Virus record (IMG/VR): IMGVR_UViG_3300030085_002643
Strand: one strand, 5' to 3'
DNA: 64,000 bases
Origin: an uncultured virus (IMG/VR IMGVR_UViG_3300030085_002643)
Lineage: Duplodnaviria; Heunggongvirae; Uroviricota; Caudoviricetes; Kyanoviridae
Part shown: one piece after another, positions 36,271 to 46,168 of the stretch
How positions within the stretch are numbered: the stretch's first letter is position 1
Layout: every line of letters starts with the position of its first letter
Translations under genes and position numbers: made by a program
The notes under the pieces: model-generated
What the model saw: the letters and a program-made list of their open reading frames with translations, nothing else
What the model was told of the DNA's origin: nothing
The model's database searches: none

Positions 36271-37253
36271 TCGATACTTTTTACGCGAACCTACTCTCTG
36301 CTCGTCTTGACAGATTCAAGCAGGTCAAGAACGGGACGTACAATTTCAGATGCCCTTACTGTGGTGACTCCCAGAAGCATAGGAATAAAGCACGAGGTTA
36401 CTTCTTCACAAAGAAGAGTGGTCTCGTTTTTAAGTGCCATAACTGTGGTGTAGGTAGATCGTTTGGTAACTTTCTAAAGGAACAAGCGAACGATCTCTAT
36501 GACGAATATGTCATGGAGAGATACAAAGCAGGTCTTACTGGCAAGGGAAGAAATGTAGCAGATCCTACCTTTGAATATAAAAAACCAAAGTTCAAGAAAA
36601 AAGGTGAACTGCAAAGTATTTCTGAGCTAAATAATGAGCACTTAGCAATAGCATACTTATTAGGACGTGGTATCCCTGAGAAACATTTCTCTGATCTATA
36701 CTATGTTGATGAGTTTTGCACATGGGTTAACACACAGAAACCGACTTTCCAAAATGTCAAAAAGGATCACCCAAGAATTATTATTCCTTTCATTGACACT
36801 GATGGCGAATGGTTTGGATTCCAAGGGAGGTCGTTAGATTTCGACGATAAACTTCGGTATATCACAGTCATGTTGGATGAAGATCGTATCAAAGTATATG
36901 GTCTTAACAAAGTAAATTTTGACAAGACTGTGTACATTACTGAAGGTCCCATTGATAGTCTCTTTATCGACAACGCAATTGCCATGGCAGGCGCTGATGT
37001 TGATTGGAAACTGATCGAAGGGAAGGAAGCAGTCTTTGTTTATGACAATGAAAAACGTAGCAAAGAAATTGTTAACCGCATGGAGAAAGTAATAGATAGA
37101 GGATACGAAATCGTAATTTGGCCAAGTAGTCTAGACGAGAAAGATCTCAATGATATGTTCTCTGCTGGACATGACGTTCAATCTCTGGTAGAATTTAACA
37201 CTTACCACGGACTAGAAGCAAAAATCAAACTCAGCGAATGGAAAAAGGTATGA
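36267..37253 (+). CDS. gp61: DNA primase gp61
   Basis: CPYCGDS...CHNC zinc finger, TEGPIDSLF, YDNE, KDLND. Confidence 0.97.
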   Translation: MIDTFYANLLSARLDRFKQVKNGTYNFRCPYCGDSQKHRNKARGYFFTKKSGLVFKCHNCGVGRSFGNFLKEQANDLYDEYVMERYKAGLTGKGRNVADPTFEYKKPKFKKKGELQSISELNNEHLAIAYLLGRGIPEKHFSDLYYVDEFCTWVNTQKPTFQNVKKDHPRIIIPFIDTDGEWFGFQGRSLDFDDKLRYITVMLDEDRIKVYGLNKVNFDKTVYITEGPIDSLFIDNAIAMAGADVDWKLIEGKEAVFVYDNEKRSKEIVNRMEKVIDRGYEIVIWPSSLDEKDLNDMFSAGHDVQSLVEFNTYHGLEAKIKLSEWKKV

Positions 37254-39535
37254 AAGAACTTCATGTTGTAAAACGAGATGGAGAAAAAGAAGTCATGAAC
37301 CTAGATAAGGTTCATGCTATGGTAGAACACGCTTGCAATGGTCTTGCAGGGGTGTCTGAATCGCATGTTGAAATGAATTCAAACTTGCAATTTTTTGATG
37401 GCATTAAGACAGCAGATATCCAAGAGATTCTGATTCGGTCTGCTAATGATTTGATCTCCTTAGAGGCACCCAACTATCAGTTTGTTGCTGCTCGTCTTCT
37501 GCTGTTTGGTCTTCGTAAGCAAGTTTATAATGGTCACCCTGATGGTCATCCACCTTTACTAGAGCACGTCAAAAAGTGTGTAGGAAAAGGTGTGTATGAT
37601 GGTGGTATTCTTTCCATGTATACTACTGAAGAGTGGGAGAAACTGAATAGTTACATCGACCATGATCGTGACTATCTGTTCACATACGCTGGCATTCGTC
37701 AAGTCACCGATAAATATCTCGTACAAGATCGTTCTACAGGAGAGATCTACGAAACGCCACAGTTCATGTATATGATGGTGGCAGCAACTTTATTCCAGAG
37801 CGATGATAAGTTTTATCGTTTGGAGTATGTAAAAAAATACTATGACGCAATCTCAAAACACAGACTCAACATCCCGACGCCAATTATGGCAGGAGTGCGT
37901 ACGCCACTCAGACAATTTGCAAGCTGTGTTCTTGTGGATGTTGATGACACCCTCGATAGCATTTTTAGCAGTGACATGGCTATTGGCTACTATGTTAGTC
38001 AAAGGGCAGGCATCGGTATCAACGCAGGCAGAATCCGTGGCATCAACAGTAAAATCAGAGGTGGAGAAGTTCAACACACAGGTGTTGTCCCTTTCCTCAA
38101 AAAGTTTGAAAGCACTGTCAGATGCTGCACTCAAAATGGCATCAGAGGTGGATCAGCGACTGTCCACTTCCCAATCTGGCACGCAGAAATAGAGGACATT
38201 CTAGTCCTTAAAAATAATAAAGGAACTGAAGATAATCGTGTTCGCAAACTAGACTACAGTATTCAAATTTCTAAACTGTTCTATGAACGATTCATCGCAA
38301 ACAGTGTCATCTCGCTCTTCAGCCCTCACGATGTGCCAGGTCTGTATGATGCTTTTGGGACTGATGACTTTGACGAGTTATATTGCGATGCTGAACAGAA
38401 TGACCTTATTCCGAGAAAGACTGTCAATGCTCAAAAATTATTTCTTGACCTTCTGAAGGAGAGAGCAGAGACTGGTCGTATGTACATCATGAACATCGAC
38501 CACTGCAATACTCACTCGTCCTTTAAGGACAAGGTGAATATGAGTAACCTGTGTCAAGAAATCACCTTACCTACAGATCCTATTCAGCATATTGATGGGG
38601 GTGGTGAGATTGCCTTGTGCATTCTCTCTGCTATCAACGTAGGTAAGTTGAAGAACCTTGACGAACTTGATGAACTATGTGAACTTGCTGTTCGTGGTCT
38701 TGATGCTTTGATTGATTATCAGCACTATCCTGTTGCTGCTGCAAAACAAAGCACTATCAATCGTCGTTCTTTAGGTATTGGTTACATTGGTTTGGCACAT
38801 TATCTTGCTAAGCATGGTGCCAACTATGATTCTCAGAAGGCACATGATCTGGTTCACAAACTCACTGAGCGGTTCCAGTATGCTCTTCTGACAGCATCTA
38901 ATCGTATGGCAATGGAGAAGGGTCCTTGCGGTTATTTTGGTAAAACCAAATACGCTGATGGAATTCTTCCTATCGATACATATAAGAAGGAAGTGGATGA
39001 AATTGTACCGAATGACCTTTCATGTGATTGGGAGTATCTCAGGGGACGCATTGTGGAATACGGGTTGCGACACAGCACTCTGTCCGCACAAATGCCTTCG
39101 GAGAGCAGTTCCGTTGTGTCAAATGCAACAAATGGAATCGAACCTCCTCGCGACTACCTGTCCGTTAAGAAGAGTAAGAAAGGACCCCTTAAACAGATTG
39201 TTCCGTCTTACAACTCGCTTAAGAACAACTACACCCTCCTTTGGGACATGCACAACAACGACGGATACATCAAAGTCACCGCCGTAATGCAGAAGTTCTT
39301 TGATCAGGCAATCAGTGGTAACTGGAGTTACAATCCAGAAAACTATTCTGACAATGAAGTGCCTGTATCAGAAATGGCAAAAGATCTTTTAACTACATAC
39401 AAATACGGTTGGAAGACTTCATATTATCAAAACACATATGATGCTAAAAAAGATGGTGACGACGAAAATGTCGATAAACTGATTAACGAACTACTCACCA
39501 CGGAGGAAGAAGATTGTGACAGTTGCAAGGTCTGA
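37250..39535 (+). CDS. nrdA: Class Ia ribonucleotide reductase alpha subunit
   Basis: ATP cone VVKRDG, QFASC, SNLCQEI, C-terminal CDSC. Confidence 0.98.
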   Translation: MKELHVVKRDGEKEVMNLDKVHAMVEHACNGLAGVSESHVEMNSNLQFFDGIKTADIQEILIRSANDLISLEAPNYQFVAARLLLFGLRKQVYNGHPDGHPPLLEHVKKCVGKGVYDGGILSMYTTEEWEKLNSYIDHDRDYLFTYAGIRQVTDKYLVQDRSTGEIYETPQFMYMMVAATLFQSDDKFYRLEYVKKYYDAISKHRLNIPTPIMAGVRTPLRQFASCVLVDVDDTLDSIFSSDMAIGYYVSQRAGIGINAGRIRGINSKIRGGEVQHTGVVPFLKKFESTVRCCTQNGIRGGSATVHFPIWHAEIEDILVLKNNKGTEDNRVRKLDYSIQISKLFYERFIANSVISLFSPHDVPGLYDAFGTDDFDELYCDAEQNDLIPRKTVNAQKLFLDLLKERAETGRMYIMNIDHCNTHSSFKDKVNMSNLCQEITLPTDPIQHIDGGGEIALCILSAINVGKLKNLDELDELCELAVRGLDALIDYQHYPVAAAKQSTINRRSLGIGYIGLAHYLAKHGANYDSQKAHDLVHKLTERFQYALLTASNRMAMEKGPCGYFGKTKYADGILPIDTYKKEVDEIVPNDLSCDWEYLRGRIVEYGLRHSTLSAQMPSESSSVVSNATNGIEPPRDYLSVKKSKKGPLKQIVPSYNSLKNNYTLLWDMHNNDGYIKVTAVMQKFFDQAISGNWSYNPENYSDNEVPVSEMAKDLLTTYKYGWKTSYYQNTYDAKKDGDDENVDKLINELLTTEEEDCDSCKV

Positions 39536-40679
39536 TAGAGAAGTAAAAGGAATGACAGTATTTAACAAGAACAAAGTGAATACCAAGAAGCAACCTATGT
39601 TTTTTGGACAACCTCTGGGAGTTCAGAGGTATGACGAATATAAGTATCCAGTATTTGATAAACTAACTCAGCAACAACTGGGTTATTTCTGGAGACCAGA
39701 AGAAGTATCCTTACAAAAAGATCGTAGTGATTACCAAACTCTATCGCCTGAGCAAAAGCATATCTTCACCAGCAATCTTAAATACCAAATCATGCTGGAT
39801 AGCGTACAAGGGCGTGGTCCTGGGATGGCTTTTATCCCATACTGCTCACTACCTGAGTTAGAAGCATGTATGACTGTGTGGGAGTTTATGGAGATGATCC
39901 ATAGTCGCTCCTATACCTACATCATCAAGAACGTATATCCTGATCCTGGTGAAGTGTTTGATACTATTCTCGATGATGAGAATGTTATGGAACGTGCTAG
40001 TAGCGTTACAGAATCATATGATGACTTTATCAACCATGCTCATGAATATGATAATGGACAGATGTGGGATCTTGCAAGAGATGGACACACCACTGGCATG
40101 TACGATCGTCATGAGTTGAAACGTAAACTCTATAGGGCAGTCGCTAATGTCAACATCCTCGAAGGAATCCGTTTCTATGTTTCGTTTGCGTGCTCGTTTG
40201 CTTTTGGCGAGAATAAACTTATGGNNNNNNNNNNGATTCTCTCTCTTATCGCTAGAGATGAAAGCCAACACCTGGTTATCACGCAAAATATCCTCAGGAA
40301 ATGGAAAGAAGGGGATGACCCCGAAATGAAAGAAATTGCTAAGGAAGAGAAAGGTTGGGTTCAACATATGTTTGAACGAACTGTCAACGAAGAAAAAGTT
40401 TGGGCAGACTATCTCTTCAAGCAAGGTAGTATGATTGGTCTCAATGATCGTCTTCTACACAACTATGTCGAGTGGATTGCAAATCGTAGGATGAAGTCTA
40501 TTGGTCTTGATCCTATGTTTGACATCCCCGCAAAGAACAACCCTCTTCCTTGGACTGAGCACTGGCTCAACTCTAAGGGTCAACAAAACGCACCACAAGA
40601 AACGGAGATTGAAAGTTATGTCGTCGGAGGAATCAAACAAGATGTCGAAGCAAGTACCTTCGCAGGATTTTCTCTCTGA
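39516..40679 (+). CDS. nrdB: Ribonucleotide reductase beta subunit (contains N gap)
   Basis: FWRPEE, EMIHSRSY, LEGIRFYVSF, RDESQH, APQETE. Confidence 0.97.
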   Translation: MTVARSDREVKGMTVFNKNKVNTKKQPMFFGQPLGVQRYDEYKYPVFDKLTQQQLGYFWRPEEVSLQKDRSDYQTLSPEQKHIFTSNLKYQIMLDSVQGRGPGMAFIPYCSLPELEACMTVWEFMEMIHSRSYTYIIKNVYPDPGEVFDTILDDENVMERASSVTESYDDFINHAHEYDNGQMWDLARDGHTTGMYDRHELKRKLYRAVANVNILEGIRFYVSFACSFAFGENKLMXXXXILSLIARDESQHLVITQNILRKWKEGDDPEMKEIAKEEKGWVQHMFERTVNEEKVWADYLFKQGSMIGLNDRLLHNYVEWIANRRMKSIGLDPMFDIPAKNNPLPWTEHWLNSKGQQNAPQETEIESYVVGGIKQDVEASTFAGFSL

Positions 40680-40920
40680 TGTAGAATGGGATCCTCGTCG
40701 AGACTTCTTCAATGAAGTCTTAGACCATCAAGGTCAATTCGAGAATCCCCATGCCGAACTTCTTTGGGAAGCAGAGAAGAAAAAGGCACTACAGGAACAG
40801 ATGAGGAACACACGACACAGTGTTGATAAGAGTCAAGACTTTATTGACAGTGGTATGACTCTTATTACAGATCCAGAATCAGACAAATACTTAAGGAATA
40901 CCAAAACGGTATCAGACTGA
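40618..40920 (+). CDS. Hypothetical protein (start uncertain)
   Basis: ORF overlapping the nrdB end; DFIDSGMTLITDPESDKYL. Confidence 0.6.
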   Translation: MSSEESNKMSKQVPSQDFLSDVEWDPRRDFFNEVLDHQGQFENPHAELLWEAEKKKALQEQMRNTRHSVDKSQDFIDSGMTLITDPESDKYLRNTKTVSD

Positions 40921-40927
40921 ACTACAT

Positions 40928-40956
40928 TTGTCAGGATTTCATGTTATAAATATAAA
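40928..40956 (+). promoter_or_regulatory. Overlapping sigma70-like and T4 late promoters
   Basis: TTGTCA-17-TATAAA, and TATAAATA at 40945-40952. Confidence 0.65.
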
Positions 40957-40960
40957 GTAG

Positions 40961-40974
40961 GTAACAATCGTTAC
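40961..40974. promoter_or_regulatory. Candidate NtcA box in a repressor-type position
   Basis: GTA-ACAATCGT-TAC equals GTA-N8-TAC, within palindrome GGTAAC/GTTACC, over the predicted TSS. Confidence 0.45.
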
Positions 40975-40980
40975 CAAATA

Positions 40981-41024
40981 CGTTCATCCTGAACATTTTC
41001 AGGACGCAAGTAAGTCGCGGAACG
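40981..41024 (+). ncRNA. Glutamine-II (Downstream-peptide)-like aptamer 1
   Basis: P1 CGTTC/GAACG, P2 TCCTGAA/TTCAGGA, core CGCAAG. Confidence 0.7.
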
Positions 41025-41027
41025 GAG

Positions 41028-41206
41028 CGTTCATCCCATGTTTGATCTATTACTTTATTCTGGTATTCATTGCACTGATGCTTCTGATATAATCAGACGT
41101 ATGGAGGCAAAGGATAATATGAATGAAGCGGTCAAGGCGGAACTGATTGAAGTAATTCAAGATGCAACGCCTGAATGTAACTGGGACGCAAACGACTAAA
41201 GGAACG
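41028..41206 (+). ncRNA. Glutamine-II (Downstream-peptide)-like aptamer 2 with a long P2 loop
   Basis: CGTTCATCCCA...TGGGACGCAAACGACTAAAGGAACG; CGACT is complementary to AGTCG of aptamer 1. Confidence 0.7.
41038..41199 (+). CDS. 53-aa peptide nested inside aptamer 2 (not in ORF track)
   Basis: MFDLLLYSGIHCTDASDIIRRMEAKDNMNEAVKAELIEVIQDATPECNWDAND; GGAG Shine-Dalgarno at 41024-41027. Confidence 0.7.
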   Translation: MFDLLLYSGIHCTDASDIIRRMEAKDNMNEAVKAELIEVIQDATPECNWDAND

Positions 41207-41239
41207 GGCCTAAAAATCCAACTACTTTAGGAGTAAACA

Positions 41240-41383
41240 ATGACTATCATCACTTATCGCGGCATCAAATATGATGCTGAAGGATACAAAGCAAAGGTTC
41301 TCGCTGAACAGGATCAGAATCGCAACCATGAACTCATGTATCGTGGAATCAAAGTAGAGCGTAAGTTCGCCTCTAAATCCTGA
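41240..41383 (+). CDS. DUF4278-like YRG-motif peptide (47 aa; not in ORF track)
   Basis: MTIITYRGIKYDAEGYKAKVLAEQDQNRNHELMYRGIKVERKFASKS; AGGAG Shine-Dalgarno. Confidence 0.8.
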   Translation: MTIITYRGIKYDAEGYKAKVLAEQDQNRNHELMYRGIKVERKFASKS

Positions 41384-41391
41384 GGAGTACA

Positions 41392-41556
41392 ATGCTCAAG
41401 ATAAAACTTGAGTGGAATTACGACCTACCTGATTATGATCCTGAAAAACACGATCCACCTAAAACTTTTGCCTTCTTGACTTATCGTGGAGTGCATTATG
41501 CTAAATGGGTTAATCTAAAACCCTTTGAATTACCTCCATGGAGAGTAACATCTTAA
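41392..41556 (+). CDS. Second YRG-motif peptide (54 aa; not in ORF track)
   Basis: MLKIKLEWNYDLPDYDPEKHDPPKTFAFLTYRGVHYAKWVNLKPFELPPWRVTS; GAGGAG Shine-Dalgarno. Confidence 0.75.
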   Translation: MLKIKLEWNYDLPDYDPEKHDPPKTFAFLTYRGVHYAKWVNLKPFELPPWRVTS

Positions 41557-41572: not shown

Positions 41573-41597
41573 AAAGCACCCATTAGGGTGCTTTTTT
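41573..41597 (+). terminator. Rho-independent terminator
   Basis: AAGCACCC/GGGTGCTT stem plus T run. Confidence 0.85.
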
Positions 41598-41634
41598 GTT
41601 AGAATAAATAAGCTTAACTATGCTTAGGAGCGTC

Positions 41635-42300
41635 ATGAAAATTTTTCTGGACTGCTCTGATGCCGAGACTATTGCCAATGCTTATGAGACGGGTTTAATT
41701 GACGGCGTAACTACCAACCCCTCTCTTATGAAAAAAGCAGGACAAGATCCGTTGGAAGTGATTAAGGAAATTTCCGAGATCTTTCCATGGAATGCTTCCA
41801 TCTCTGCCGAAGTGGTCGGACAGACCGCTGAAGAAATGCTAGACATGGCAGAGCAGTATATCGACATTGGACCAAACATTACAATCAAAGTACCATGCAC
41901 CATAGAAGGTCTCAAGGCATGTAGAGACCTCACTAACGATGAAGTTAGTGTAAATGTCACCTTAGTTTTTTCAACAGCACAAGCAATCCTTGCATCTAAA
42001 GCAGGGGCAACATATGTTTCACCATTCGTAGGAAGAGTATACGATAACTCTTTCGACGGGATTAAACTAATTGAGGAGATTGCAGATGTATTTGCCACAC
42101 ACGGACGAGACACTAAAGTTCTCGCTGCATCAGTTAGGGAAGTTCAGCAAGTATCCTCTTCTTTTAGAGTGGGAGCTGATATTTGTACTCTCCCTATTCC
42201 CGTTTTTAATAAAATGTATAACCATGTTCTGACCGATAAAGGTTTGGAACAATTTGACAAAGACTGGCAGGAACTTCAAGGATGTCTGACGAAGAACTAA
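41635..42300 (+). CDS. talC: Transaldolase (TalC type)
   Basis: MKIFLD, DGVTTNPSL, ITIKVP, YVSPFVGR, LAASVR. Confidence 0.96.
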   Translation: MKIFLDCSDAETIANAYETGLIDGVTTNPSLMKKAGQDPLEVIKEISEIFPWNASISAEVVGQTAEEMLDMAEQYIDIGPNITIKVPCTIEGLKACRDLTNDEVSVNVTLVFSTAQAILASKAGATYVSPFVGRVYDNSFDGIKLIEEIADVFATHGRDTKVLAASVREVQQVSSSFRVGADICTLPIPVFNKMYNHVLTDKGLEQFDKDWQELQGCLTKN

Positions 42301-42643: not shown

Positions 42644-43003
42644 TTATGAAAACCCCTGGATTTTTAATGGATACCCTTTTTTATCTGAGAACATTGACGA
42701 CCATTTCGGTTTTGTCTATTGCATTACAAACACACTCACTGGTAAAAGATACATCGGAAGAAAATACTTTCACCAATTACGAAAACNNNNNNNNNNACTG
42801 AAGATCGCAAACAGTTCGGAAATCTGGTCTTCAAACGAGACATTTTAAGCCTACATAAATCTAAGGGACTCACAAACTTTGAAGAGACCCGACAACTTTT
42901 TCTCAACAATGTACTTACGGAGGCGATGTCAGATGGGACACCTGCATTTTACAATTCAAACATTCTTGGTAGGTACATGCGTAAAGACTATTTCAATACT
43001 TGA
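42579..43003 (+). CDS. GIY-YIG endonuclease (EndoII/DenA-like), interrupted by N gap; start uncertain
   Basis: GFVYCITN...RYIGRK; after the gap FKRDILSLHK...EETRQLF...FYNSNILGRY. Confidence 0.8.
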
Positions 43004-43054: not shown

Positions 43055-43195
43055 ATGGACGAAGAGTTCAATGACATTGAAGACGCAATGTTCGATATTT
43101 TTATCGACCAGTTGCATCAGATGGCCGAGCTCGAAGAGGAAAACCTTGATAACCTCTGGGTCAGTAGCTCAGCGGATAGAGCAACTGCCTTCTAA
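43055..43195 (+). CDS. Small acidic peptide (46 aa) reading into the tRNA
   Basis: MDEEFNDIEDAMFDIFIDQLHQMAELEEENLDNLWVSSSADRATAF; GGGGG upstream; stop codon lies in the anticodon loop. Confidence 0.5.
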   Translation: MDEEFNDIEDAMFDIFIDQLHQMAELEEENLDNLWVSSSADRATAF

Positions 43196-43230
43196 GCAGT
43201 CGGTCGTAGGTTCGATCCCTACCTGACCCG
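43158..43230 (+). tRNA. tRNA-Arg (TCT), CCA not encoded
   Basis: Acceptor GGGTCAG/CTGACCC, D arm GCTC/GAGC, anticodon stem ACTGC/GCAGT with loop CTTCTAA, T arm GTAGG-TTCGATC-CCTAC. Confidence 0.95.
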
Positions 43231-46024: not shown

Positions 46025-46059
46025 GATCGATTGGGTGAGGGAATCCTCACCTTTTCATT

Positions 46060-46168
46060 CTGTCGCCTCACCGAGACTAAACAGCGACATTAAATAACAG
46101 TCTCTCATACCTCTGCTTAGGGTGCAGAGGAATAGTAAAACCGCCATTTCCCTGATGGTCTTACTACT
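46060..46168 (+). ncRNA. PhotoRC-II-like structured leader of psbA
   Basis: TGTCGC/GCGACA stem, GAGACT/AGTCTC pseudoknot, CCTCTGC/GCAGAGG and TAGTAA/TTACTA stems directly upstream of psbA. Confidence 0.7.

Follow-up and report, generated by a model that had tools for sequence, protein, structure and literature searches.

Can an aptamer that senses a small molecule carry a complete protein-coding gene within one of its own hairpins, and to which riboswitch class would such an element belong? The question is raised by a 64,000-nucleotide (nt) stretch of DNA, here called the window, from an uncultured virus of the Kyanoviridae (IMG/VR record IMGVR_UViG_3300030085_002643), the source phage being a T4-like cyanomyovirus. 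Riboswitch aptamers are usually treated as compact non-coding domains in front of genes; here a whole conserved gene lies inside an aptamer hairpin, five of its codons are the sensor core, and two cores appear to sit on one helix. Two glutamine-aptamer-like units are linked by GGAACG-GAG-CGUUC, with CGTTCAT at 40981–40987 and 41028–41034 and GGAACG at 41019–41024 and 41201–41206. An earlier note on this DNA had described them as tandem interlocked Glutamine-II-like aptamers, the second with an open reading frame (ORF) in its loop; the two units stand, and all the coordinates it gave (CGTTCAT, AGTCG/CGACT, TCCCA/TGGGA, GGAG and the ORF) proved right when checked on the sequence. In the explanation that we favour, positions 40981–41233 are the leader of a small cyanomyovirus operon, and this leader is probably a variant glutamine riboswitch in which two cores of the glnA (Glutamine-I) type share one P2 helix, with a gene in the P1a hairpin of the second core, P1a(2), and with two regulatory outputs. 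This architecture of a known riboswitch class is, in our view, real and conserved, has so far gone undescribed and is structurally well supported by comparison.

In this fold, the outer core would be built from CGUUC of unit 1 and GAACG of unit 2, written CGUUC(1) and GAACG(2), together with P1a(1), the junction strand CGCAAGUA, a P2 of AGUCG and CGACU, and the junction AAAG. The inner core would lie within P2 and comprise the GAACG(1)-GAG-CGUUC(2) hairpin, the junction CGCAAA and P1a(2), whose loop is the whole 53-codon gene. A further helix, helix 4, pairs CU(A/G)AAG with CUU(U/C)AG directly 5′ of the AGGAG of the next gene. We counted base pairs for four helices (18 pairs) in 75 distinct aligned IMG/VR sequences and in 500 shuffles. 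Over all four, 98.1% of cells were paired, against 91.7% after shuffling, and 11 of the 18 pairs had changed on both sides, against 4.0; no shuffle scored as high on any measure. With the 3′ partners slid along the same alignment, pairing fell to 30–53%. By helix, the hairpin of unit 1 was paired in 97.0% of cells, with 4/4 pairs changed on both sides; AGUCG/CGACU in 100%, with two pairs changed on both sides and two on one; the stem around the nested gene in 96.3%, with 4/5 changed on both sides; and helix 4 in 99.3%, with 1/4 changed on both sides and one on one side.

Wider sets behaved in the same way. Short stems of the unit 1 type had a paired fraction of 0.879, compared with 0.651 when shuffled (0/1000 shuffles as high). 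Among 114 unique long stems, drawn from 184 units with a gene, the first three positions were always paired (UA 110 and CG 4; CG 114; CG 100, UA 13 and UG 1), the fourth in 99 and the fifth in 96. The 132 tandem unit pairs held 17 combinations of AGUCG and CGACU, none of them broken in the 130 that use the swapped helix, and these included the compensatory variants AGUCA/UGACU (L081 and L088), GGUCA/UGACU (L148) and AAUCG/CGAUU (L116), as well as G-U intermediates. The remaining two loci (L104 and L123) use a self-contained mini-hairpin in each unit instead, as does phage S-SSM7. Both pairings that the earlier note had put forward, TCCCA with TGGGA (its P2 of the second aptamer, our P1a(2)) and AGTCG with CGACT, thus covary.

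The nested ORF is a real gene. A tblastn search with its product returned 240 phage records, none below 80% coverage, and the protein matched phrog_504 with an E-value of 9.3e-24; the counterpart in Synechococcus phage S-SSM5 is annotated as SSSM5_192, T4-like gene cluster 430, and a Pfam search gave no family for the protein of 53 amino acids (aa). Across 50 unique 53-codon alleles, the entropy of the interior codons was 1.00, 0.51 and 1.39 at positions 1, 2 and 3, which is a coding pattern. For the five closing codons, W D A N D, the third-position entropies were 0, 0, 0, 0 and 0.14, whereas the invariant interior residues C12, E35 and C47 varied at the third position (0.96, 0.96 and 0.80). 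These five codons are therefore held at the nucleotide level, and with the stop they read TGG GAC GCA AAC GAC TAA, which is the aptamer core. The claims that a whole gene lies within the hairpin of unit 2, that its last codons are the core and that its Shine-Dalgarno sequence sits at the junction between the aptamers are all upheld.

An AlphaFold2 model of the protein, built from 114 relatives, is a helix-loop-helix (H12–24, H30–43) with a mean predicted local distance difference test score of 84.1 and a low-confidence tail, and two cysteines are invariant across the alignment of nested proteins. The long units encode 165 unique nested proteins of 49–75 aa, plus one truncated 18-aa ORF. The first unit of relatives can likewise hold a gene, of 66 aa (phrog_6471), and the nested proteins of both units look like a single superfamily with a hydrophobic start and two cysteines. 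Some of the nested proteins (L058, L115 and L120) have N-termini that resemble Sec signal peptides.

The layout recurs well beyond the source phage. Starting from the nested protein, we collected 38 IMG/VR loci at 41–100% amino-acid identity. All 38 carry the 3′ flank TGGGACGCAAACGACT(A/G)AAGGAACGG, and all 37 with upstream DNA carry the 5′ flank GCGTTCATCC(C/T)ATG, so that the aptamer halves around the gene are not there by chance. Scanning for the junction GGAACGGRGCGTTCA added at least 120 viral stretches, and the pooled sets amount to 158 loci with 282 aptamer units, 98 with a short hairpin and 184 with a long loop of 145–239 nt. The commonest chain is a short unit, 3 nt and a long unit; about fifty loci have two long units separated by 3 nt, and unit 1 also houses a gene in roughly a third of loci. 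Two short units occur only in L157, and L088 has three units, short-long-short. Of thirteen loci that at first seemed to be single short units, eight do contain a second one, with CGCAC as its core variant; four are truncated by a contig end, and one lacks a second unit.

Within the long units the reading frame is conserved. An ATG follows 9–16 nt past the start of CGTTCA in 184/184, at +10 in 159 of them, and the ORF reaches the 3′ half in 181, the other three stopping earlier. The stop lies inside the core at +11 in 128 units, which gives the ...DAND tail, and at +14 in two; in five it falls at +7, with a ...GRK tail, and is the UAA of CGCAAGUAA; and in 46 it lies within the stem, at −4 or −5. 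An independent search started from the 66-aa gene of unit 1, relatives of which are encoded in 338 viral stretches. Among the best 80 of these 338, both halves and the junction after them, with the ATG of the next nested gene, are present in 72; a further four have the 5′ half with somewhat wider spacing. The layout is shared by isolates from five Kyanoviridae genera, namely S-SSM5, which is the nearest isolate (91.3% identity across the entire 1101-nt query), Syn19, Prochlorococcus phage P-RSM1, S-SSM7 and S-SM2.

How could such a leader act on the gene that follows it? The evidence lies in helix 4, whose 5′ strand contains the nested stop codon. Among 112 unique sequences, all 32 with a UAA stop have UUUAGGA before the next gene, and the 80 with UGA have UUCAGGA in 56 cases, UUUAGGA in 17 (a G-U pair) and another sequence in seven. 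The middle base of the stop codon and its partner before the Shine-Dalgarno sequence are thus A-U in 32, G-C in 56, G-U in 17 and A-C in none; the same variable pair in the 75-sequence count was GC in 38, AU in 28, GU in nine and never unpaired. The same 3′ untranslated-region backgrounds carry both matched states, which argues for repeated changes. Helix 4 is also present in the unconstrained minimum free energy (MFE) fold of 40964–41245 (−78.3 kcal/mol, z = −3.76). Its strand CUAAAG has CU in common with P2 and AAAG in common with the junction 5′ of GAACG(2), a junction that reads GAAG in relatives with a TGA stop. A local CCUAAA/UUUAGG hairpin was considered as a conserved trap for the Shine-Dalgarno sequence and rejected, as relatives with UUCAGG keep CCUAAA and would have a mismatch.

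We propose that, at low glutamine, CUAAAG would pair with CUUUAG just 5′ of the Shine-Dalgarno sequence and hinder translation of the DUF4278/IF17-like gene, and that glutamine would stabilise the aptamer, draw CUAAAG into the sensor and free the ribosome-binding site. Such an ON switch would resemble that of cyanobacterial gifB. The account in PMC6212724 makes DUF4278 part of the glutamine-synthetase inactivating factor IF17, reports that glutamine binding to the gifB leader raises protein synthesis, and proposes that an aptamer-adjacent strand pairs with the ribosome-binding site and is melted off by glutamine; for Glutamine-II, ligand-stabilised pairing is suggested in PMC6698751 to compete with a structure that occludes the ribosome-binding site. 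Our reading as an ON switch follows from three parts that match gifB: the downstream gene belongs to DUF4278, helix 4 shares six bases with the aptamer, and an NtcA-type box lies at the promoter.

It is rather doubtful that helix 4 serves mainly for translational coupling, with glutamine playing a minor part there and a ribosome that terminates in CU(A/G)AAG freeing the Shine-Dalgarno sequence of the DUF4278 gene. The stop codon does lie inside this covarying helix, 31 nt 5′ of the downstream Shine-Dalgarno sequence, and the ORF ends exactly there in 128/184 gene-bearing units, as coupling would have it; yet the two loci with a gene-less unit 2 (L088 and L157) retain helix 4, 46/184 nested genes stop earlier, in the stem, and the sharing of six aptamer bases (CU of P2 and AAAG) is what is expected of an expression platform, as proposed for gifB in PMC6212724. 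The coupling and riboswitch roles are compatible.

The second output that we propose for the leader concerns the nested gene itself. Its GGAG would lie in the loop of the inner P1 and its AUG in the P1a(2) stem, where a folded sensor would hinder initiation; ribosomes on the nested gene would in turn have to open P1a(2) and then, at the stop codon, P2 and helix 4. With the nested start signals in the sensor and translation unfolding it, sensing and nested translation should exclude each other, which would probably put the reading of nitrogen status and the making of the nested protein in competition on a single mRNA. We tentatively extend this to a two-output nitrogen switch, a possible reading if not a likely one, in which a low glutamine level would promote the two-cysteine protein and shut off the IF17-like peptides, a high level would have the opposite effect, and the aptamer halves would also be portable borders for swapping nested genes.

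The likely family of the riboswitch shows best in a relative that naturally lacks the nested gene. At the Rfam gathering thresholds, no glutamine-riboswitch family was found in the whole window. L157, by comparison, scores 46.4 bits with the glnA model RF01739 (cut-off 35, E-value 2e-9) and 28.1 bits with the Glutamine-II model RF01704. RF01739 aligns it as CGUUC(1), P1a(1), ACGCAAGUA, AGU[41 nt]ACU, GAAG and GAACG(2), so that the second unit is an insert in P2 and the outer-core junctions, of 8 nt and 4 nt, have the glnA consensus lengths. Single units score 24.9–35.1 bits with the same model, the highest being a self-contained unit of L088. The leader of the source phage has the corresponding parts: CGUUC and GAACG strands, each present twice, for a P1 that closes a three-way junction; a covarying P1a hairpin directly after CGUUCA in both units; a P2, AGUCG/CGACU, between CGCAAGUA and AAAG, where glnA has CGGAAGUA and GAAG; and a DUF4278/IF17-like gene downstream.

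The Glutamine-II assignment of the earlier note was not supported as it stood, the element being closer to glnA (Glutamine-I). RF01704 stayed below its cut-off of 33 bits everywhere tested (29.8 in the source phage, 32.7 and 25.4 in L088, 28.1 in L157), and in place of the P2 hairpin that holds GGAACGG in a 9-nt loop, forming an H-type pseudoknot with CGUUC, the alignments have P2 columns that are mostly deleted or non-canonical. As to the interlocking of the two aptamers, the pairing of AGUCG with CGACU is confirmed, and the idea of a pseudoknot between side-by-side aptamers is not, this helix being P2 of an outer three-way junction on the L157 reading. The presence of YRG/DUF4278 peptide genes downstream is supported by a PF14105 match and by the ORFs.

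We clearly favour the nested glnA-type double core over a pseudoknotted Glutamine-II tandem because of the L157 score, the consensus lengths of the outer junctions and the mere two bases between AGUCG and GAACG(1). These two bases would suit a chain that enters a helix at the far end of P2 and not one that returns to its near end. It is unlikely, in our estimate, that the units instead fold side by side, with CGUUC and GAACG paired 1 with 1 and 2 with 2 and with AGUCG/CGACU as a pseudoknot-like bridge in a cooperative or pseudo-cooperative sensor. Such a tandem would need the C and G between AGUCG and GAACG(1) to return along a 5-bp helix with 1–2 nt, which would seem geometrically difficult, and it would leave the 46.4 bits of nested L157 against 24.9–35.1 for any single unit. 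In its support, Rfam does align unit 1 locally (29.8 and 27.0 bits) and single L088 units, one self-contained at 35.1; the self-contained mini-P2 (AGCCGACU) in each unit of L104, L123 and S-SSM7 means that independent tandem units exist; GAACG(1) is transcribed before CGUUC(2), so that a local fold can come first; the energies of the two folds are about equal; and 157 doublet glutamine riboswitches are read as pseudo-cooperative in the survey of PMC9481103. The rare units with a mini-P2 (AG-CCGA-CU; L088:430–481, L104, L123 and S-SSM7, L282) suggest that the shared P2 arose from an ordinary tandem, each unit losing one strand.

Several points weigh against a nested, glutamine-sensing leader. 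The support is comparative, and ligand binding and expression are predicted from sequence. With E-value reporting over 40900–41300, unit 1 reaches 29.8 bits with RF01704 (cut-off 33, E-value 1.5e-5) and 27.0 with RF01739 (cut-off 35), and unit 2 has no Rfam match. The glnA model cannot span the 180-nt insert of the window. CGUUC and GAACG are invariant (75/75), which leaves covariation silent on nested versus side-by-side pairing of the copies. The nested fold (−70.6 kcal/mol) and the tandem without P2 (−69.0) are 1.6 kcal/mol apart and both about 8–9 kcal/mol above the MFE, and the unconstrained MFE fold has neither the long-range stem nor P2. The inner-core junctions, of 6 nt and 2 nt, are shorter than the glnA consensus, and the inner core may not bind glutamine. 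Double-sided changes in P2 come from four loci only; the junction-scan loci were selected by motif, related sequences can beat shuffles without structure, and shared ancestry inflates the counts. Lastly, in the source phage the CCUAAA/UUUAGG hairpin could still mask the Shine-Dalgarno sequence with the aptamer folded, although this pairing is not kept in relatives.

The flanks could also be read at the level of DNA. Regulatory cassettes that shuffle genes are known in T4-type phages, and the halves of the aptamer might be mainly portable borders for the exchange of small genes, with the RNA pairing a by-product and the nested genes passengers. An invariant junction of about 38 nt flanks many alleles and several sub-families, unit 1 occurs with or without a gene in different phages, and L088 and L157 are natural gene-less versions. 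The cassette also lies in different places, between nrdB and talC in Syn19 (L280), after nrdC in S-SM2 (L283) and after a carbamoyltransferase gene in S-SSM7 (L282), and because these neighbourhoods differ it appears to move as a unit. We nonetheless consider it very unlikely that exchange is the main role: compensatory changes keep the stems closed around the genes, which DNA-level borders would not need, the stem invariably holds the start codon, and the junction holds the Shine-Dalgarno sequence. Service as borders could be a second role beside that of the RNA.

In the Glutamine-II structure of PMC6698751, the ligand is described as lying among C1:G40, G2:C39 with G18, and C19:G41. That the RNA is conserved and structured and no longer senses glutamine, acting for example only in protein binding or mRNA stability, is highly improbable: the scores of the source phage are below cut-off, its inner-core junctions are shortened and a C replaces the G of the glnA consensus in CGCAAGUA, but the CGUUC/GGAACGG helix and the CGC strand match the ligand-site positions described in PMC6698751, sequences in the published glnA seed alignment have this combination of CGC and GGAACGG too, L157 scores above the glnA cut-off, and DUF4278 genes accompany the element just as they accompany cellular glutamine riboswitches.

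Table 1. Features of the leader and of the operon it precedes (positions in the window)
Feature	Position	Strand	Remarks
Putative sigma-70-type promoter: TTGTCA (40928–40933), 17-nt spacer, TATAAA (40951–40956)	40928–40956	+	Read by eye
Palindrome GGTAACAATCGTTACC	40960–40975	none	Includes NtcA-type box GTA-N8-TAC
NtcA-type box GTAACAATCGTTAC (GTA-N8-TAC)	40961–40974		Overlaps predicted transcription start
CGUUC(1), P1 5′ strand	40981–40985	+	Partner GAACG at 41202–41206 (nested) or 41020–41024 (tandem); invariant, 75/75
P1a hairpin of unit 1: UCCUGAA (40987–40993), loop CAUU, UUCAGGA (40998–41004)	40987–41004	+	Covariation
Junction strand CGCAAGUA; glnA consensus CGGAAGUA	41005–41012	+	Rfam alignments; near-invariant in the alignment
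AGUCG, 5′ strand of inter-unit helix (P2 of outer core)	41013–41017	+	Pairs with 41193–41197
GAACG(1)-GAG-CGUUC(2), possible local 5-bp hairpin with GAG loop (inner P1)	41020–41032	+	In unconstrained MFE fold
GGAG, likely Shine-Dalgarno sequence of nested gene	41024–41027	+	Ends 10 nt 5′ of ATG
UCCCA, 5′ strand of long-range P1a stem of unit 2	41034–41038	+	Nested start codon begins at A41038
Nested gene, 53 codons and TAA	41038–41199	+	phrog_504; T4-like gene cluster 430; two invariant cysteines
UGGGA, 3′ strand of long-range P1a stem of unit 2	41182–41186	+	Within nested-gene codons 49–50
Junction strand CGCAAA of unit 2	41187–41192	+	Within codons 50–52; invariant columns, zero third-position variation
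CGACU, 3′ strand of inter-unit helix (P2)	41193–41197	+	
CUAAAG, 5′ strand of helix 4	41196–41201	+	Holds nested stop UAA (41197–41199); pairs with CUUUAG at 41225–41230
GAACG(2) then G, P1 3′ strand	41202–41207	+	Invariant; aligned as P1 3′ strand by RF01739 in L157
CUUUAG (3′ strand of helix 4) overlapping Shine-Dalgarno sequence AGGAG (41229–41233) of downstream gene	41225–41233	+	
DUF4278 (IF17-like, YRG motif) peptide gene, 47 aa	41240–41383	+	PF14105; phrog_5049
Second small YRG-motif gene, 54 aa	41392–41556	+	phrog_6192, E-value 2.6e-30; DUF4278 weak, 13.5 bits
Terminator-like hairpin (9 pairs, 41573–41594), then T-run	41573–41604	+	Closes small operon 5′ of talC

The GAACG(1)-GAG-CGUUC(2) junction is invariant in 75/75 sequences, from loci that were selected by the same motif, and is present in the protein-seeded sets as well. 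Around the locus (Table 1) the source phage has nrdA (37238–39535), nrdB (39516–40679) and talC (41620–42300). The product of the gene at 41240–41383 scores 25.0 bits against PF14105, just below the cut-off of 25.3 (E-value 2.5e-05); its S-SSM5 orthologue carries the DUF4278 annotation, and the downstream genes at two other loci score 22.6 and 28.1 bits. Further downstream lie a tRNA (43158–43230, 71.5 bits) and a PhotoRC-II RNA (46047–46143, 59.7 bits, cut-off 39). Short N-masked stretches at about 40225–40240 (XXXX in the nrdB translation) and 42785–42800 (ORFs near 42790) are clear of the riboswitch locus.

Transcription of the operon, too, is probably nitrogen-controlled, judging by the NtcA-type box at the promoter. 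Most relatives have TTGACT-17-TATAAT ending 7–8 nt 5′ of CGTTCA, a promoter that would begin transcription within a few bases of CGUUCA; the putative counterpart in the window was not listed by a promoter scan that demands T as the final base of the second hexamer. Of 134 unique upstream regions, 91 have GTA-N8-TAC no more than 70 nt 5′ of the first unit. In most relatives the box stands about 58 nt upstream of CGTTCA, ahead of the promoter, and in the source phage it stands at the predicted transcription start, a repressor-like position. The NtcA motif and the reasoning that a site overlapping the transcription start implies repression are as set out in PMC6212724.

Some observations concern the spread and variants of the element. 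Many relatives with a TGA stop, S-SSM5 among them (L005:876–905, L003:877–915), carry an extra element between GGAACGG and the strand before the Shine-Dalgarno sequence, which the source phage does not have. It consists of ACGGAUC, a covarying hairpin with a GNRA-like loop (CUGC-GAAA-GCAG, CACC-GAAA-GGUG or CAUC-GAAA-GAUG) and AGAAGGUUAA, and resembles the 3′ two-thirds of a glnA aptamer without a matching P1 strand. In run X10, a marine DNA contig (depth 24, side 26 nt) links 41037 to 41183 by CTCG where the gene would be, and may represent a gene-less allele or the short aptamer of another phage. Six RNA-library runs share a fifth of the sampled words; the three examined consist of assembled contigs only, including some of 20–45 kb, and are not informative on transcription, ends or level. 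Short contigs across 41252–41470 have a higher per-contig depth than the flanks, depth not being a valid ranking measure here. A search for the element in host genomes with the 15-nt junction pattern gave, among the at least 120 matches listed, unrelated bacteria and archaea; only L278 (1/120) had CGCA rightly placed upstream, and we discarded these as chance matches in 596 gigabases. The nearest genome record (G001) has no RF01739 match.

Glutamine riboswitches, their occurrence in tandem and their presence in T4-like cyanophages are already in print, as far as the accounts in PMC2864571, PMC9481103, PMC9964418 and PMC9602691 go. As described there, the tandem survey of PMC9481103 counted RNA domains as tandem only without an intervening ORF and excluded gaps of more than 300 nt. 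Our full-text search, which did not extend to Ames and Breaker 2011, found no description of a gene inside an aptamer or of a shared P2. Six signature strings, taken from the junction, the core tails and the 5′ halves that bear a gene, had 0 matches in the Weinberg 2010 alignments; the 2010 seed alignment does have sequences of both the aptamer 1 and the aptamer 2 type, as single units. Standard Rfam scanning misses the element in the source phage, and covariance-model scans under-count riboswitches with long inserts. Different genera of cyanomyoviruses conserve the layout, which is plentiful in marine viromes. If our interpretation is correct, the leader would be a naturally occurring RNA on which ligand sensing and translation compete directly, and ocean phages would read the glutamine and NtcA signals of their hosts and so set the timing of IF17-like peptides with a possible action on glutamine synthetase. 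Should the two-output reading hold as well, one riboswitch would be sensor, coding sequence and gene-cassette frame at once.

Among known systems, the closest likeness is to Glutamine-I (glnA, RF01739), as described for the Synechocystis gifB/IF17 leader in PMC6212724. Shared with it are the CGUUC/GAACG P1, the P1a closed by U-A and C-G, and the junctions CG(G/C)AAGUA and (G/A)AAG with P2 between them; shared with gifB in particular are a DUF4278 gene downstream, an aptamer-adjacent strand able to pair with the region of the ribosome-binding site, and an NtcA box at the promoter. In contrast to that class, the P2 of the phage element is a 5-bp helix with a second aptamer core as its "loop" and not a hairpin, an entire gene forms the loop of one P1a (of both in some phages), the units of the source phage fall below the cut-off, and the element is viral, whereas the account in PMC6212724 calls the class exclusively cyanobacterial. 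With Glutamine-II (RF01704, in the account of PMC6698751) it has in common the pairing of CGUUC with GGAACGG, a CGC strand with a C:G long-range pair in place of the G:C of glnA, and a position upstream of YRG/DUF4278 peptides as in marine picocyanobacteria. It differs in the absence of a P2 hairpin directly flanking GGAACGG, in its scores (29.8, 25.4 and 28.1 bits against a cut-off of 33) and in helix 4, which has a loop of at least 23 nt and overlaps bases that the solved structure, as described, uses in its pseudoknot.

Two further systems share single traits with the phage leader. Like the tandem glycine riboswitch in its published descriptions, the leader links two homologous aptamers for one amino acid to a single expression platform. 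The glycine aptamers stand side by side and touch through tertiary contacts, whereas the phage cores share a Watson-Crick helix and probably nest, and glycine aptamers are not known to contain a gene. Group I introns that carry homing-endonuclease genes, as described in PMC3984707, similarly house a protein gene in a structured, functional RNA. The intron RNA, however, is a ribozyme and not a ligand sensor, and its gene is a mobility gene whose codons are not the catalytic core, whereas the last five codons of the phage gene are themselves the aptamer core.

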